DNA of 7,519 bases from a virus: IMG/VR virus record IMGVR_UViG_3300001195_000001, positions 1-7,519 of that record. One strand, given 5' to 3'. The translations under genes and the position numbers were made by a program. The notes under the pieces are model-generated. The model did not search any database, had not been told where the DNA came from, and worked only from the letters and a program-made list of their open reading frames with translations. Within the stretch, counting starts at the first letter, position 1. The number at the start of each line of letters is the position of its first letter. Positions 958 through 7,519 of this stretch are shown here, piece by piece.

Positions 958-973
958 TCCATTCAGATGGGGC

Positions 974-1004
974 GCTTCGCATAATCGGGAACGTTACGTT
1001 TAAT
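974..1004 (+). other. dif-like XerC/XerD site 1 (candidate attP arm): GCTTCGCATAA-TCGGGAACG-TTACGTTTAAT
   Basis: Each 11-nt arm matches the E. coli dif arms (GGTGCGCATAA / TTATGTTAAAT, recalled from memory) at 9/11 positions. The central spacer is 9 nt rather than 6. Confidence 0.6.
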
Positions 1005-1037
1005 CGTGTCGGGATGATGGTTGGCGGTCCCGGCGCG

Positions 1038-1065
1038 ATTTAATGTAACGTTGGTTATGCGCTGC
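1038..1065 (-). other. dif-like XerC/XerD site 2 (candidate attP arm), read on the minus strand: GCAGCGCATAA-CCAACG-TTACATTAAAT
   Basis: Canonical 11-6-11 architecture. Both arms match E. coli dif at 9/11. It is inverted relative to site 1 and 33 nt away. Confidence 0.65.
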
Positions 1066-1302
1066 GCTCCCGTTCCACTCGAAATCCCGCTTCACCTGGT
1101 TAAACAGGCACGTCTCTACGCGGCTGGTCGAGGTCCTAGCGACCTGGAAGCCGTACTCCACGTTCTGAATGATTACCCTAGGTTGTTCGCTGAGCTCCGG
1201 GAGCTTCGCCGCCGTGTTGCTCAGCTAGACGACGAGGGCGCCGCTCTGGACGCCCGTCTAACTGCCCTGCAGGACGCTTGCCGCGCTATTTTGCAGCTTT
1301 AG
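1057..1302 (+). CDS. Hypothetical ribbon-helix-helix-like DNA-binding protein with a C-terminal coiled-coil-like tail (81 aa from the ATG; the ORF is open from TTG 1021)
   Basis: The N-terminus VPLEIPLHLVKQARLYAAGRGPSDLEAVLHVLNDY fits the RHH pattern (beta strand, helix, G-x-S/T helix cap). The tail is RLFAELRELRRRVAQLDDEGAALDARLTALQD. No clear SD precedes the ATG, and the start is uncertain (1021 or 1057). Confidence 0.5.
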   Translation: MRCAPVPLEIPLHLVKQARLYAAGRGPSDLEAVLHVLNDYPRLFAELRELRRRVAQLDDEGAALDARLTALQDACRAILQL

Positions 1303-1303
1303 G

Positions 1304-1735
1304 TTAGGCGTCCTCACAGTCACGCTGTATCGCGATATAGCGCGGAATAACCGGGCCTGCATTTTTACTATCAACAAACGGATTTCCCGAATGAAGCATT
1401 GCGGAATGAATCAAATTATCCAGACGCTCATAAAGCTCGTATGAAATCGCCTCAGCCTGGTGAAGCGCATAGATAGCGCCGCTGCACCGGCCGTAGTAAG
1501 CCATCCGATTCAATGATTCCTGCTCGACACGAAGGCGAACAATGTCCGCCCAAAACATATGAATCCATCTGCCAGACATGCTTCCGCCTTGTTTTGATTT
1601 CACCCGCTCACGATAGGCGCGTTGCTTCTCGGCTGGCGTCATCGCCTTGCCGGTAGCAGGTCGCCCGCGCTTGCGCTTGGCTGGCTGCTCGTCCAGGGGG
1701 AGGGTTTTTGTTTGCTTGTCTGCTTGGTCGATCAT
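1304..1735 (-). CDS. Hypothetical protein with a basic AT-hook-like N-terminus (KRKRGRPATGKAMTPAEKQRAYRERVK) and a ~95-aa C-terminal domain of unknown function
   Basis: 143-aa ORF. Its ATG overlaps the stop of the upstream gene (ATGA at 1735-1732), giving translational coupling. It ends 1 nt from the stop of the convergent ORF 1057-1302. I recognised no catalytic motif. Confidence 0.65.
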   Translation of the reverse strand: MIDQADKQTKTLPLDEQPAKRKRGRPATGKAMTPAEKQRAYRERVKSKQGGSMSGRWIHMFWADIVRLRVEQESLNRMAYYGRCSGAIYALHQAEAISYELYERLDNLIHSAMLHSGNPFVDSKNAGPVIPRYIAIQRDCEDA

Positions 1736-1965
1736 GCTATGCGCTCCATAGATTCATCTATTGCATCGTTGATGAGTCCTGCCCAGTTTGCATAGCTCAC
1801 CTGGTTGCCGTTCCAGAATGCTGCCAGCATCCAATATGCACGCTGTGAAAGTTCGTTCCATTCCGCCAGGGTCAAGCAGGATTCGATTGCGTCCAGAAGC
1901 GCACTTGCACGCGCGTCGTTCAGCTCATCTTCTTGCATGTTGTAGATTTCGTCGGGATCTCTCAT
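1732..1965 (-). CDS. Hypothetical small, strongly acidic, Trp-rich helical protein (77 aa)
   Basis: A GGAG sits 8 nt upstream of the ATG (plus-strand CTCC at 1974-1977). I count 15 Asp/Glu against 4 Arg and 0 Lys, plus 4 Trp. It is the first gene of the two-gene minus-strand operon. Confidence 0.65.
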   Translation of the reverse strand: MRDPDEIYNMQEDELNDARASALLDAIESCLTLAEWNELSQRAYWMLAAFWNGNQVSYANWAGLINDAIDESMERIA

Positions 1966-1996: not shown

Positions 1997-2026
1997 ATTA
2001 TAGTAACGTTACCACAAATAAGACAA
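1997..2026 (-). promoter_or_regulatory. Candidate sigma70 promoter of the minus-strand two-gene operon: -35 TTGTCT (2026-2021), 18-nt spacer, -10 TATAAT (2002-1997)
   Basis: The -10 hexamer is perfect and lies ~30 nt upstream of the ATG at 1965. The spacer contains the 10-bp palindrome GTAACGTTAC directly abutting the -10. Confidence 0.55.
2003..2012. promoter_or_regulatory. Perfect palindrome GTAACGTTAC, a candidate operator (motif copy 3)
   Basis: It lies inside the spacer of the candidate promoter. It shares the AACGTTAC core with 990-997, 1045-1052 and 2068-2075. Confidence 0.5.
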
Positions 2027-2067
2027 TTGTATGTTGCTATCGCGCTCGCACGTCTGATAGATAAAGC

Positions 2068-2082
2068 AACGTTACCTTAATT
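2068..2082 (+). promoter_or_regulatory. Motif copy 4, AACGTTACCTTAATT (candidate operator or XerD-arm-like half site)
   Basis: Same 8-nt core plus an A/T-rich tail as the other three copies. It lies ~45 nt upstream of the -35 of the minus-strand promoter. Confidence 0.4.
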
Positions 2083-2424: not shown

Positions 2425-2442
2425 ACCCCGGATTCCCGGGGT
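2425..2442 (+). other. 7-bp hairpin ACCCCGG-ATTC-CCGGGGT
   Basis: Read directly from the sequence. It is in tandem with the 2398-2421 hairpin and overlaps the stop codon of the minus-strand gene by 1 nt. Confidence 0.55.
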
Positions 2443-2651
2443 CACTCGGTCTCTATCACCACATCGCCAGATGCATTGATCTGCACGTAAGGCACTGATC
2501 TATCAAGGATTTTGTGCACAAGCTCGCTGTCCCGCATCGGCGGCATGCCGCGCTTTACGAGTAACTTGTTGATTTCTATGCATTTTTGCCGGATCGCCTC
2601 TTGTTCGGCGGTAGTTAGGCGAATCGTTGCTGGCATTTTCAATTGGTCCAT
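2442..2651 (-). CDS. Small ribbon-helix-helix-like transcriptional regulator, divergent from the replication gene (candidate phage repressor, RstR-position analogue)
   Basis: The translation is MDQLKMPATIRLTTAEQEAIRQKCIEINKLLVKRGMPPMRDSELVHKILDRS, which fits beta strand plus two helices. It is divergently arranged from rep, with palindromes between them. The start is uncertain: TTG 2666, ATG 2651 or ATG 2636. Confidence 0.6.
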   Translation of the reverse strand: MDQLKMPATIRLTTAEQEAIRQKCIEINKLLVKRGMPPMRDSELVHKILDRSVPYVQINASGDVVIETE

Positions 2652-2683
2652 ATTGACACCCGTCAATCAGCATACGTGCATGC

Positions 2684-2743: not shown

Positions 2744-2758
2744 CATGCATGCATGCAA
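2741..2758. promoter_or_regulatory. 18-bp perfect palindrome TTGCATGCATGCATGCAA, i.e. (TGCA)4, in the rep leader; a candidate operator or cruciform
   Basis: The sequence is self-complementary by inspection. It sits between the candidate -10 and the rep RBS (AGGGGAG at 2761-2767). Related palindromes are TGCATGCA at 2677-2684 and GCATGC at 2701-2706. Confidence 0.55.
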
Positions 2759-2772
2759 CAAGGGGAGCAGGG

Positions 2773-3921
2773 ATGTTTATCGATTGGCTTACGGTGTCTC
2801 AAGAGCATCAGCACGACCTTCCGGTTGTGTGCGATGTGATGACCATCACGATTGATACGAATACCAATGAAGTGCTCTCCACCCGCCAGCCTCGCTTTAA
2901 GCATGAGGCCAGCTATTCCACTTCGGTCACGATCCATGTGCAGGGGCGGAAAGTCCGTGTTGAAGGCAACCCAAGCCGGGTAGGTCGCCTGGACAACCTG
3001 TTCGGCTTCTCGACCATCGAGCAGTGCGTTTCGGTCTACAACCAGCTTCTGGCCGAGTACGGCCTGCCGGGCTTTACCCGCTGCACTCGCGTTGATCTGC
3101 GGGACGGCGCATCAGGTGCAAAGACCGGCGATCGCGTGGCAGACGGTGCCAAGATTGAGCGCATCGACCTCACCACTAACGTATCGGTAGGAGAGGGCAA
3201 CGTGTTGGCCTACCTGCGCGGCGTTTCCTCCCAGCGCATCGGGCACAGCATCGGTTTCCTGTATCCCAACGGCCGCACCGTTGCGTGGACCCCGAAGGGC
3301 AATGGCAAAGGCGGGCGGCTCCAGTATCGCAAGGCCTATGACAAGGCTTTCGAGCTGGACGAGAACCTTCTCCCGAAAATCAAGCGCCTCTATGGCGATC
3401 AATCCCCCGAGTTCCTGTATGTGCAGCGCGTCCGCGACTACTGCGCCCTTCATGGCGTTGTGCGGATGGAGCAGGAGCTTAAGAACGAATTTTTGCAGCG
3501 TGAATGCCTGGCCTATTGGGGCCTGTTTGACGAACGGCGTTTTGCCGAACTCCACGATGAGTTTTTGAGAATTGATGAGCGACTGAAGGTGACCGCAATG
3601 GACATTGTTTCCATTTCCCAGCAGCTGATGCTTGAGAAAGATGCCAAGGGCAAACCTATCTGCAAAACCACCCGTGCAGCTAACACCACCGCCATGTATG
3701 CGATTCAGTGGATGCACGGTCAGCAGTTCGACTTCAACAAGTCCGCCGTCCAGGAACACGCCGCTCGCCTCAACCGCATCGGCATCAACATCCGCAACGC
3801 CTGCGATACCTCGCGCTTCGCGCCGGTCTTCGTCCGTCAGGCTCGTGAAATCACCAAGTCCACGGTGCTGGCAATCCCCAGCTGGTATCAGCGCCCGAAC
3901 CATCTGCAGGTGGCCGCATGA
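2773..3921 (+). CDS. Rolling-circle replication initiation protein, phage gene II/X (CRI-like) family, 382 aa
   Basis: An AGGGGAG RBS lies 5 nt upstream of ATG 2773. The N-terminus MFIDWLTVSQEH and the motif VEGNPSRVGRLDNLFG resemble the conserved IDW and GNPSK...N.FG signatures I recall for filamentous-phage pII/RstA-type initiators. The gene is first in the + operon. Confidence 0.75.
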   Translation: MFIDWLTVSQEHQHDLPVVCDVMTITIDTNTNEVLSTRQPRFKHEASYSTSVTIHVQGRKVRVEGNPSRVGRLDNLFGFSTIEQCVSVYNQLLAEYGLPGFTRCTRVDLRDGASGAKTGDRVADGAKIERIDLTTNVSVGEGNVLAYLRGVSSQRIGHSIGFLYPNGRTVAWTPKGNGKGGRLQYRKAYDKAFELDENLLPKIKRLYGDQSPEFLYVQRVRDYCALHGVVRMEQELKNEFLQRECLAYWGLFDERRFAELHDEFLRIDERLKVTAMDIVSISQQLMLEKDAKGKPICKTTRAANTTAMYAIQWMHGQQFDFNKSAVQEHAARLNRIGINIRNACDTSRFAPVFVRQAREITKSTVLAIPSWYQRPNHLQVAA

Positions 3922-6941: not shown

Positions 6942-7519
6942 TGGCTATTCACTTTCATGAAGGCCTGCCGGGTGCTGGCAAGTCCTATGAGGCGTGCGTC
7001 TATCACATCCTGCCCGCTCTCAAGTCCGGACGGCAGGTCATTACCAATATTCGCGGCGTCAACTGGGACAAGTTCGCTGAGCTTCTAGACGAGCCCGTTG
7101 AGTATGTTCGCATGCTGCTGCTGTACATCGAGCCGGCCGAGCAGGACGGGGAGGCCGCCGACATTGAGCGCGTGAAGAACGAGTTCGCCGATCGCACGCC
7201 TGATAACGCGATGATCGTCTGGGACGAGATTCAGGATTACTTCCCAAGCGGCAACTACAAGCTCCCGCTTAACCAGCAGAAGTTTTGGACCGAGCATCGC
7301 CACCGCGGGCTTGAAATCGTCATCATGGGTCAGGACCGCGATGATGTGCATAAGATCATCCGCAGCCGGATCGAGGATATCGTTTACTTCCTCAAGCTGC
7401 AGGCGGTTGGGCGTCCCAATCAGTACAAGTGGGAGCAGCTGCAGAAGCAAGCCAAGGGCCGATTCGTGAAGATCGGTTCAGGCGTTCGAACCTATGAATC
7501 CAAGTACTTCGGTCTTTAC
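6941..7519 (+). CDS. zot: Zot / pI-like phage assembly P-loop NTPase, 5' part (runs off the window end and continues at base 259 of the circle; the full gene is 6941->7261 joined to 1->957, 425 aa)
   Basis: The ATG at 6941 overlaps the upstream stop (TAATG). The translation begins MAIHFHEGLPGAGKSYEACVYHILPAL. Walker A GLPGAGKS lies at 6962-6985 and a Walker B-like MIVWDE at 7211-7228. The gene sits last in the morphogenesis module. It is absent from the ORF track only because it has no stop inside the window. Confidence 0.85.
   Translation, partial: MAIHFHEGLPGAGKSYEACVYHILPALKSGRQVITNIRGVNWDKFAELLDEPVEYVRMLLLYIEPAEQDGEAADIERVKNEFADRTPDNAMIVWDEIQDYFPSGNYKLPLNQQKFWTEHRHRGLEIVIMGQDRDDVHKIIRSRIEDIVYFLKLQAVGRPNQYKWEQLQKQAKGRFVKIGSGVRTYESKYFGLY
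7262..7519. repeat. Terminal redundancy copy 2 (identical to 1-258)
   Basis: Same comparison as copy 1. The offset is 7261 nt. Confidence 0.95.

Follow-up and report, generated by a model that had tools for sequence, protein, structure and literature searches.

The stretch of DNA analysed here, called the window throughout (7,519 nt; IMG/VR record IMGVR_UViG_3300001195_000001), closes into a circular inovirus genome of 7,261 nt, its first 258 nt being repeated exactly at its end (1-258 = 7262-7519). Between its attachment site attP and the intergenic region lie three small genes for which searches of Pfam, NCBIfam and PADLOC return no family: an open reading frame (ORF) resembling ribbon-helix-helix (RHH) proteins on the plus strand and, meeting it tail to tail, a leftward pair encoding an acidic protein of 77 aa and a protein of 143 aa with a basic N-terminus. 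What do these genes do, and do they belong together? We favour the view, with a probability of roughly 0.6, that they form a conserved self-repressing regulatory operon based on the N-terminal arm of the 143-aa protein, with two slots that vary, one for an upstream gene that may be absent and one for an exchangeable C-terminal domain, facing an RHH plus coiled-coil gene at attP.

According to this proposal the 143-aa protein would be a modular transcription regulator, the arm of which consists of an RGRP AT-hook and a single basic helix. The AT-hook would contact the AT-rich flank of the palindrome GTAACGTTAC and the helix its GTAAC half-sites, such that an oligomer bound next to the -10 box could shut the operon promoter and bring about negative autoregulation, while a second palindrome 63 bp (six helical turns) upstream might allow cooperativity between the sites. 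An ancestral RHH domain would have been exchanged for a three-helix bundle with an NAGPVxP tail in the window, and for many other domains in relatives. The 77-aa protein would be an optional passenger in the slot between promoter and regulator gene, and the 81-aa product of the RHH-like ORF would belong to the control of integration state or production.

Table 1. Features of the locus and of its surroundings, in window coordinates.
Feature	Position	Strand	Description
Zot-like gene	crosses the contig junction, ends at 957	+	
attP	969-1071	+	forked hairpin of the packaged (+) strand, two inverted dif-like sites, CTXphi type
dif-like arm of attP, first	about 975-1005	+	
dif-like arm of attP, second	1038-1066	-	
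RHH-like ORF (81 aa)	1021/1057-1302	+	stop TAG 1300-1302
143-aa ORF	1304-1735	-	second gene of the leftward operon; stop 1304-1306
C-terminal domain, residues 55-143	1307-1573	-	predicted three-helix bundle and F-x-D-x-x-NAGPV-x-P tail; swappable cassette
N-terminal arm, residues 1-49	1589-1735	-	disordered acidic/polar leader, AT-hook core KRKRGRP, basic helix
Basic helix, residues 34-49	1589-1636	-	
RGRP of the AT-hook	1658-1669	-	
77-aa ORF	1732-1965	-	first gene of the leftward operon
Predicted sigma-70-like promoter of the leftward operon	1997-2026	-	-35 TTGTCT (2026-2021), 18-nt spacer, -10 TATAAT (2002-1997)
Proximal candidate operator GTAACGTTAC	2003-2012		perfect 10-bp palindrome; last ten bases of the spacer, abuts the -10 box
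Distal candidate operator GCAACGTTAC	2066-2075		9/10 match, 63 bp upstream of the proximal copy
gII	2749-3921	+	Phage_CRI and G2P_X_C domains

The evidence that carries this proposal is a correspondence between the helix of the arm and the DNA in front of the operon. Homologues of the proteins studied here come from metagenomic contigs of ~7 kb and from genomes of Pseudomonas, Stutzerimonas and related bacteria, and 83 distinct arm proteins from the fetched loci were compared with their own upstream DNA. The class of operator tracks the sequence of the arm helix without exception. The palindrome GTAACGTTAC precedes the operon in all 43 cases with the helix AMT[P/A/Q]AEKQRAYR; the 12 proteins with A[L/M]SNAERQR are all preceded by GTTACGTAAC (nine) or GTTACGTTAC (three), and the 13 with AL[S/T]DAERARRYRAN all by GTGACGCGTCAC (one reading GTGATGCGTCAC). 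Rarer helices have operators of their own, namely GTAACGTCAC for the single case of AMTPAERQAAYRER (AERQAAYRER), GTAACGCGTTAC for the two cases of AMTNAERQ, and GTAAC-G-GTTAC for the single case of AEKQARYRARK. Both half-sites, as well as the distal copies, change in concert between classes, and such concerted, symmetry-preserving changes argue for a dimeric binder with changed specificity.

The other candidate binders do not follow the operator in this fashion. Subtypes of the RHH protein are shuffled relative to operator class, phages that share an operator can have any of three unrelated types of regulator on the gII side, and the P. aeruginosa phages of the 42-1 type, in which only ~190 nt separate zot from the end of the operon, keep operon and operators and have no RHH gene. 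The arm is therefore the sole protein element that is constant with a constant operator and different with a different one; the shuffling and the phages without an RHH gene disfavour both the RHH protein and the gII-side repressor as binder of the palindrome. Thus, the 143-aa protein probably represses its own operon by way of the arm.

The layout of the promoter region agrees with such a role. The operon promoter matches the sigma-70 consensus at 10 of 12 positions, and the order TATTTAT, palindrome, TATAAT recurs before the homologous operon in 46 distinct relatives with the GTAACGTTAC-type operator (class A), with the distal copy lying exactly 63 bp upstream in 36 of the 46. Whatever the class, the operators lie between conserved AT-rich tracts (TATTTAT and TATAAT), which is circumstantial support for minor-groove binding by the AT-hook. 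The window contains five copies of the motif AACGTTAC, where 0.07 would be expected, its non-operator copies lying in the two arms of attP. This resemblance of attP to the operator may simply be sequence of the XerD arm and central region: a co-variation of the attP palindromes with operator class, an idea prompted by relative L005, was not supported, given that phages with class-B operators (GTTACGTAAC) have attP sequences of A or C type. The operator region was also considered as a single-stranded hairpin promoter or minus-strand origin and rejected, the fold of 1966-2110 having a z-score of only -1.23.

Many class-A relatives, though not the window, have a third exact GTAACGTTAC inside the arm gene (L015 5140-5149, L030 3202-3211, L034 4081-4090). 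It lies exactly where the constant arm gives way to the variable tail, reads [G/S/R]-N-V-T in translation, and is found 179-196 bp downstream of the proximal operator; an exact helical phasing at 189 bp was dropped in view of this spread, in which 187 is the commonest distance. The copy could be a third operator, a vestige of an ancestral RHH strand ('NVTVT' in relatives with arm and RHH domain) or a recombination joint. Two protein clusters (P0016 and P0040) have a 24-aa insertion with another copy of the palindrome.

Several points weigh against a self-repressing arm. We infer the DNA binding of the arm from the correspondence described above, and operator and arm-coding DNA are only ~50-450 bp apart, so that co-inheritance of one block could partly contribute to the association. 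In proteins of the YbfE/CopB type it is the RHH sheet, not the arm, that is expected to read DNA, and binding of a palindrome by an arm alone would be unusual; the AlphaFold2 (AF2) model of the arm has a single helix, with residues 1-26 disordered. The operon promoter is predicted purely from its consensus match. Furthermore, HHalign of the arm alone against YbfE gives a probability of 2%, the link to YbfE running through intermediates, and no targets of the regulator beyond its own promoter (and possibly attP) were found.

Are the ORFs themselves real, and what is the 143-aa protein? The three ORFs, the overlap of the two leftward genes and the tail-to-tail junction are all where the earlier note had placed them. 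A single nucleotide (1303) separates the RHH-like ORF from the 143-aa ORF. On the minus strand 1735->1732 reads ATGA, the TGA stop of the 77-aa gene overlapping the ATG of the 143-aa gene, which bears out the reading of the pair as a translationally coupled operon; both minus-strand starts have a GGAG Shine-Dalgarno sequence 8-9 nt before the ATG (1974-1977 for the first, inside the 77-aa gene for the second). The ratio of nonsynonymous to synonymous substitution (dN/dS) is 0.13-0.46 for the 77-aa gene against three relatives, and 0.18-0.82 for the C-domain, the C-terminal two thirds of the 143-aa gene. Codons 16-45 in the arm have entropies of 0.27, 0.22 and 1.13 at positions 1, 2 and 3 across 24 loci, and across 45 distinct RHH genes the entropy is 1.1-1.6 at the third position versus 0.2-1.3 at the other two. 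By these substitution patterns all three ORFs are genuine genes under purifying selection. The third positions of codons 1-15 of the 143-aa gene (1691-1735) vary unusually little (0.55, versus the 1.13 of codons 16-45), which suggests an extra constraint at the level of DNA or RNA, for example from the coupling of translation or from a role in anchoring recombination at the upstream slot. A 14-nt inverted repeat (1281-1294 / 1332-1345, 86% complementary) flanks both convergent stops; as a classical terminator it was ruled out, there being no T-run after the repeat on either strand.

A search for homologues of the 143-aa protein yielded 160 sequences, of which about 50 are full-length; in more than 100 the similarity ends after the first ~45 residues (MIDPADKQTQALPLDEQPAKRKRGRPATGKAMTPAEKQRAYRER), to be followed by unrelated sequences of 92-197 aa. 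Conversely, seven clusters (P0042-P0048) consist of the window-type C-domain alone. By these comparisons the protein is a chimera. Its AF2 model, with a predicted local distance difference test score (pLDDT) of 71, shows the basic helix at 34-49 after the disordered leader, then a three-helix bundle (55-70, 74-93, 99-114) and a short tail. The arm is near-invariant as protein while third codon positions are free, so its constancy appears to be selected at the protein level. Its core with basic flanks reads KRKRGRPATGK, in which G24, R25 and P26 are invariant across 34 diverse homologues. The earlier note had called this basic patch AT-hook-like, and rightly so: although Pfam gives no match on the window protein itself, AT_hook included, the Ralstonia homologue (KRGRGRPRK) reaches 17.5 bits against the AT_hook gathering cutoff of 17.4.

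The likeness to eukaryotic AT-hook and basic leucine zipper (bZIP) proteins extends to the RGRP core with basic flanks, the AT-rich TATTTAT/TATAAT sequence beside the operators and palindromes with an ACGT core, and in some relatives (L052, L141) the basic helix is followed directly by a leucine zipper. The window protein differs in having neither a zipper nor the bZIP Asn/Arg signature; with no Asn (N-x7-R/K) signature, and with a loop and a three-helix bundle after the helix, it was not accepted as a member of the bZIP family. Matches to that family are weak wherever they occur (E = 0.07 on the RHH-like ORF; bZIP_2 with E = 0.049 on L052).

A further relationship is provided by inovirus and plasmid homologues in which the same arm precedes a clear RHH domain, such as L121 (...AERQAAYRARHELVAVTVELPSELVEALNDYLKFKD...), L054, which has GTGAC-NN-GTCAC palindromes upstream, and the protein of a 2.8-kb Aeromonas plasmid, which has ATTTATCGTGAC units upstream. 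In NCBIfam these arm and RHH proteins match two entries, PRK11675 ('LexA regulated protein', YbfE) from end to end, with E-values between 1.7e-5 and 4e-4, and PRK13702 (RepA2/CopB) with E = 0.003; in Pfam they weakly match RHH_1 (0.0056) and RepB-RCR_reg (0.067). HHalign connects them along their whole length to E. coli YbfE with 95% probability (E = 2.5e-8), and connects the window family to them, over the arm, with 99% probability (E = 4e-18). Because of this chain, from the window family through the arm and RHH proteins to YbfE, the window protein is best seen as an apparent arm-only derivative of repressors of the YbfE/CopB type in which the RHH domain has been replaced. It shares with YbfE, with CopB (RepA2 of IncFII plasmids) and with PF10723 (RepB-RCR_reg) an N-terminal arm of the form M-x-D...T..L..., K/R-rich, GRP, x-T/S-x-x-E-K/R-Q, basic helix. 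CopB, itself small, represses the promoter of a replication gene in a mobile element, and the repressor-type role that we propose for the 143-aa protein would be a further likeness. The window protein differs in that the arm is followed not by an RHH domain but by the three-helix bundle: none is present in the AF2 model, and neither RHH_1 nor PF10723 matches even at E <= 1.

The 143-aa protein reaches the score of no curated NCBIfam or Pfam family, and we found neither a solved structure of an arm of the YbfE/CopB family nor a paper on the function of YbfE. The correspondence between helix and operator bears on whether that family's uncharacterised N-terminal arm is itself what recognises DNA. 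It also touches current annotation: the arm protein of Pseudomonas phage 42-1 (OR621020.1, CDS 140-559) is labelled 'replication regulatory protein RepB' in GenBank, yet the match of the window protein to it is confined to residues 1-42 and by eye its sequence has no RHH-like segment, so that the label is most likely an over-transfer from the arm alone. The core of the arm (GRP..G.AMTPAEKQ.AYRER.K) turns up in other contexts as well, at the end of two large proteins that resemble helicases (560 aa, L039 3729-5411; 893 aa, L053 1718-4399) and at the start of a 99-aa protein with arm and RHH domain, of which one betaproteobacterial metagenome-assembled genome has four copies intact and two truncated (L054-L059).

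As for the domain that follows the arm, the earlier note could assign the last ~95 residues to no family, and this stands after searches of Pfam, the PDB and BFVD: Foldseek against the PDB and BFVD finds generic three-helix bundles only (E >= 0.002), and sequence profiles of the PDB give nothing useful. The most conserved feature of the domain is its tail, in which N125, A126, G127, P128, V129 and P131 are invariant or nearly so. The tails that replace it elsewhere are mostly coiled coils followed by small globular domains, and Pfam on 34 of these variable-tail proteins returns coiled-coil noise only. The window-type domain also occurs free: in relative L140 the upstream slot encodes it as a protein of 92 aa, with ATGA coupling to an arm protein of 164 aa, and L141, an inovirus of the Rep_1 type, has a 96-aa version after zot, ATGA-coupled to a 71-aa protein of arm and leucine zipper. 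What unrelated inovirus backbones have in common is the combination of a window-type C-domain and an arm protein, in some cases as one fusion protein and in others from neighbouring genes coupled by ATGA, and by Rosetta-stone logic this pattern of fusion and fission argues that the two work together. We infer that the bundle would be an oligomerisation or co-regulatory partner of the arm protein.

One may go further and suppose that the arm by itself (AT-hook and single basic helix, ~45 aa) is a self-sufficient DNA-binding module that sets specificity and has lost the RHH domain of ancestors of the YbfE/CopB type, and that with its palindrome-controlled promoter it makes a portable docking platform, onto which inoviruses and small plasmids mount diverse domains and small genes through fusion and fission; the whole would then be a hypervariable, self-limited interference locus (for heteroimmunity, superinfection exclusion or anti-defence) beside attP, opposed by the RHH gene according to the state of integration or production. 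We offer this larger picture only tentatively and think it more likely wrong than right.

What, then, of the 77-aa protein? It is acidic and rich in tryptophan, as the earlier note had it, with 15 D/E, 4 R, no K, 4 W and an isoelectric point (pI) of 4.05. The family is tiny (10 clusters at 90% identity, and eight representatives at 50% identity among 1.84 billion proteins) and is always ATGA-coupled to an arm protein. The partners are of 143/149 (window type), 169, 185 and 150 aa with differing C-termini, the last being preceded by a distant relative of 81 aa, and they fall into two arm/operator classes. In the other direction, the window-type C-domain occurs without an upstream gene in L005, L008 and L009 and with a different small gene in L006, and an upstream gene is missing altogether from about 53 of 81 distinct operons. 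For these reasons the 77-aa gene is, as far as co-occurrence can tell, optional and not an obligate partner of the 143-aa protein. Speculatively, its product may modulate the basic arm, or be an independent accessory factor expressed from a self-limited promoter. Patterns of the type SY..W/Y..L, noticed by eye, had suggested that it is a paralogue of the C-domain of the 143-aa protein, an idea that was rejected on an HHalign probability of 0.4%.

The first of these ideas can be sharpened into a pair of anti-repressor and repressor, in which the acidic protein would bind to the basic arm, either mimicking DNA or sequestering its partner, relieving autorepression and making the operon a tunable switch. 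The 77-aa protein, with its low pI, coupled translation and place at the head of the operon, would suit the part, and so would most other small proteins of the slot, which are also acidic (pI 4.5-5.1); the association of one family with differing C-domains and two arm/operator classes would fit a target in the constant arm. However, with about two thirds of the operons lacking an upstream gene, such a role would be dispensable, the slot protein of L031 is not acidic (pI 6.7), and no homology to any known anti-repressor is seen. On balance we consider this pairing doubtful, preferring the self-repressing operon with an optional passenger.

The variability of both slots invites another explanation, namely that promoter, operator and arm are a platform for expression and tethering, and that the C-domains and slot genes are payloads directed against the host or rival phages (superinfection exclusion, anti-defence or host modulation). 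At least 8-10 unrelated C-termini and at least five unrelated slot proteins are mounted on one constant frame, a free-standing window-type C-domain lies right after zot in the Rep_1-type inovirus, and the invariant NAGPVxP tail suggests a conserved protein partner. Against this, nothing in the locus matches a defence or anti-defence model or any functional domain, and most of the variable tails are coiled coils, more typical of oligomerisation. We regard such a moron-like locus as unlikely, but the presence of many unrelated C-termini on an invariant arm near attP does point to rapid functional diversification, which could bear on conflict between phages or between phage and host.

The earlier note had likewise described the three genes as an accessory module in the moron position. 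This does not hold for the module as a whole, given that the RHH gene and the arm belong to the conserved backbone of a whole clade of dif-integrating inoviruses: variable presence, the mark of a moron, is seen for the 77-aa gene and the 143-aa C-domain, and not for the RHH gene, the arm and the promoter. Its suggestion of defence or anti-defence cargo found no match among the corresponding models, and the reading as cargo, toxin-antitoxin or DNA-mimic module is mostly not supported; a regulatory or switch role of the locus, which it also raised, remains plausible.

The plus-strand gene that faces the operon is another matter. No Shine-Dalgarno sequence precedes its ATG at 1057, which falls within the 3' arm of the attP hairpin, and the longer reading from TTG-1021 ('RFNVTLVM') is merely a translated dif-like arm, as is the peptide 'RFNVT.IM' conserved upstream in relatives. 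The 81-aa product belongs to phrog_13909 (E = 1.4e-31; 120 homologues), an entry of unknown function, as are those matched by the N-terminus of the 143-aa protein (phrog_10506/9651/6334/23279). The AF2 model (pLDDT 90) has residues 1-11 extended, a helix at 12-21 and a 52-residue helix at 29-80, that is, a strand-helix-helix topology with a short N-terminal strand. The best Foldseek matches in the PDB are nearly all RHH proteins (Rv0298 antitoxin, PutA, MatP, CopG, CdbA, Arc, ParD2) but are not significant (E = 1.2-4), Pfam and NCBIfam give no RHH match, and a PDB profile search gave coiled coil only. An RHH fold, which the earlier note had proposed, is therefore reasonable for this model but not proven. 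The strand holds proline and acidic residues, residues 1-40 contain 4 K/R versus 4 D/E and are not basic, and the most conserved part of the protein is its C-terminal coiled coil. The RHH of P22 Mnt and of E. coli MatP is likewise followed by a C-terminal coiled coil, and the 81-aa protein resembles them in its order of strand, helix and long helix continuing as coiled coil, MatP being among the best Foldseek matches; it differs in that no sequence or structure score is significant (E >= 1.2), in its RHH half, which is not basic, and in that no operator has been identified. It is not the detached RHH domain of the arm family either: HHalign places strand and helix A in register with the arm and RHH proteins at a probability of only 0.7%, on which the idea was rejected.

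In nearly all relatives with a hairpin attP this gene adjoins the arm gene and the hairpin, and by this conservation it is a separate backbone gene. It is oriented like the core operon (gII to zot), no convincing candidate for a promoter of its own was found, and its transcription necessarily runs head-on into the 3' end of the regulator operon, from which it is separated in relatives by gaps of +1, -4 or -17 nt. If the RNA folds like the DNA, the start codon would be paired in the hairpin. A role of the 81-aa protein in the state of integration, or in an antagonism between production and regulator, is plausible. In class-B phages (L043 3751-3760; L103, L130, L134) a copy of the class-B operator itself lies inside the 5' part of the RHH gene, where it encodes 'LLRNA', mostly exact and with one mismatch in L103; this is a hint that the RHH gene may be a further target of the arm protein.

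Could the 81-aa protein rather than the arm bind the GTAACGTTAC palindromes, at the operon promoter and in the attP arms, and bridge these sites as MatP does on matS? RHH dimers read short palindromes with a central ACGT, as in the met-box of MetJ, and the palindromes here are of this kind; the structural match to MatP has a template modelling (TM) score of 0.46, and the attP arms hold 9/10 and 8/10 copies of the palindrome just upstream of the RHH ATG. But RHH subtypes with very different strands share an identical operator, and the same subtype occurs with different operator classes; the 42-1-type phages keep the promoter and operator design without the gene; the N-terminal half of the protein is not basic; and the palindrome type of attP does not follow operator class. 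All told, we judge this assignment improbable and keep the arm as the likelier binder. A type II toxin-antitoxin system in reversed gene order, with the 77-aa protein as toxin and the 143-aa protein as autoregulating antitoxin, would account for two small overlapping genes, a palindromic operator at the -10 box and a second gene that presumably binds DNA, but is very improbable, given that the co-occurrence survey shows no obligate pairing (the 77-aa gene goes with four types of C-domain and the window-type C-domain goes without it), that the putative toxin is strongly acidic and of a tiny family, and that Pfam, NCBIfam, PHROGs and PADLOC show no toxin or antitoxin family.

The phage as a whole is a CTXphi-type, XerCD/dif-integrating inovirus of Pseudomonas/Stutzerimonas, and the three genes are its attP-proximal regulatory block. 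This assignment follows from the two inverted dif-like arms of the hairpin and from the tandem prophage of a close relative with a hybrid dif site. As single-stranded DNA, 969-1071 folds into a long imperfect hairpin (-33.3 kcal/mol, z = -6.25; none of 200 shuffles as stable). The second arm reads GCGCATAA-CCAACG-TTACATTAAAT, and both arms align to Pseudomonas dif, the consensus of which we take to be GATTCGCATAA-TGTATA-TTATGTTAAAT. The evidence for integration at the host dif comes from close relatives, not from this contig: in Pseudomonas sp. PS02288 a tandem prophage has the hybrid site ATTTAACATAATATACATTATG at its left junction, and its right side retains both hairpin arms. The structural genes, like gII and zot, are on the plus strand. 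With attP directly after zot, the three genes lie beyond attP, outside the slot between zot and attP that holds ctxAB; the earlier note was thus mistaken in equating their place with that of ctxAB.

With CTXphi the phage shares the two inverted dif-like sites that make a forked hairpin in the packaged strand, relatives that are tandem prophages at dif, and reverse-oriented regulators after attP. RstC of CTXphi is a small anti-repressor, of which the 77-aa protein is a possible analogue. The differences are that no sequence similarity to RstR, RstC or RstB is seen, and that a second reverse-oriented regulator of 74 aa lies next to gII. Another parallel in layout is ORF13 of phiRSS0 of Ralstonia solanacearum, a reverse-oriented helix-turn-helix DNA-binding regulator proposed as immunity factor, the 3' end of which contains attP (PMC3816273). 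In each of these two XerCD-integrating inoviruses a reverse-oriented regulator gene neighbours both the intergenic region and a dif-type attP, and in both attP overlaps a regulatory ORF; here, however, the overlap is with the 5' end of the RHH gene, while the reverse-oriented regulator is the arm protein.

The genes are undescribed but not a new class of system. A literature search on them and on their deposited relatives gave nothing beyond one metagenomic description, and Rfam gave a single sub-threshold match, elsewhere in the window. The weight of the finding lies mainly in the correspondence of arm and operator, the loss of the RHH domain and the extreme modularity, which together offer a testable identity for genes that are 'hypothetical' in databases and deposited phage genomes, the 'RepB' label on one homologue fitting the shared arm only. 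The full design of promoter, palindrome at the -10 box and arm protein is found in inoviruses of Pseudomonas/Stutzerimonas and P. aeruginosa, and apparently in small Aeromonas plasmids. Arm proteins are present on such plasmids (57 of 98 records in a permissive tblastn, E-value limit 1), and in Aeromonas veronii pHS28 (L145, 2.8 kb) ATTTATCGTGAC units precede an AATAAT box. A Ralstonia RSS-like element (L144, 7.2 kb) has only a 199-aa arm protein, directly after zot on the plus strand, with scattered GTTAC/GTAAC half-sites upstream.

Beyond the operon, the 74-aa ORF next to gII (2442-2666, minus strand; phrog_5642, E = 5e-25) is divergent from gII, in the usual position of a repressor, and its segment ATIRLTTAEQEAIRQKC looks RHH-like; in related phages the place beside gII is taken by an HTH_3 protein or an unrelated 71-aa protein. 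The gII promoter region (2670-2760) has direct repeats of ATGTGATTTG (2684, 2734) and GCATGCATGCA (2743, 2747). Between this ORF and the operon, 2100-2441 is conserved and non-coding, with strong hairpins at 2196-2228, 2397-2421 (GGTGGGGGTG...CACCCCCAC) and 2426-2441 and a single-stranded fold of z = -2.94; similar sequence appears as spurious ORFs in L005 and L006. These hairpins could be terminators, a packaging signal or a minus-strand origin.

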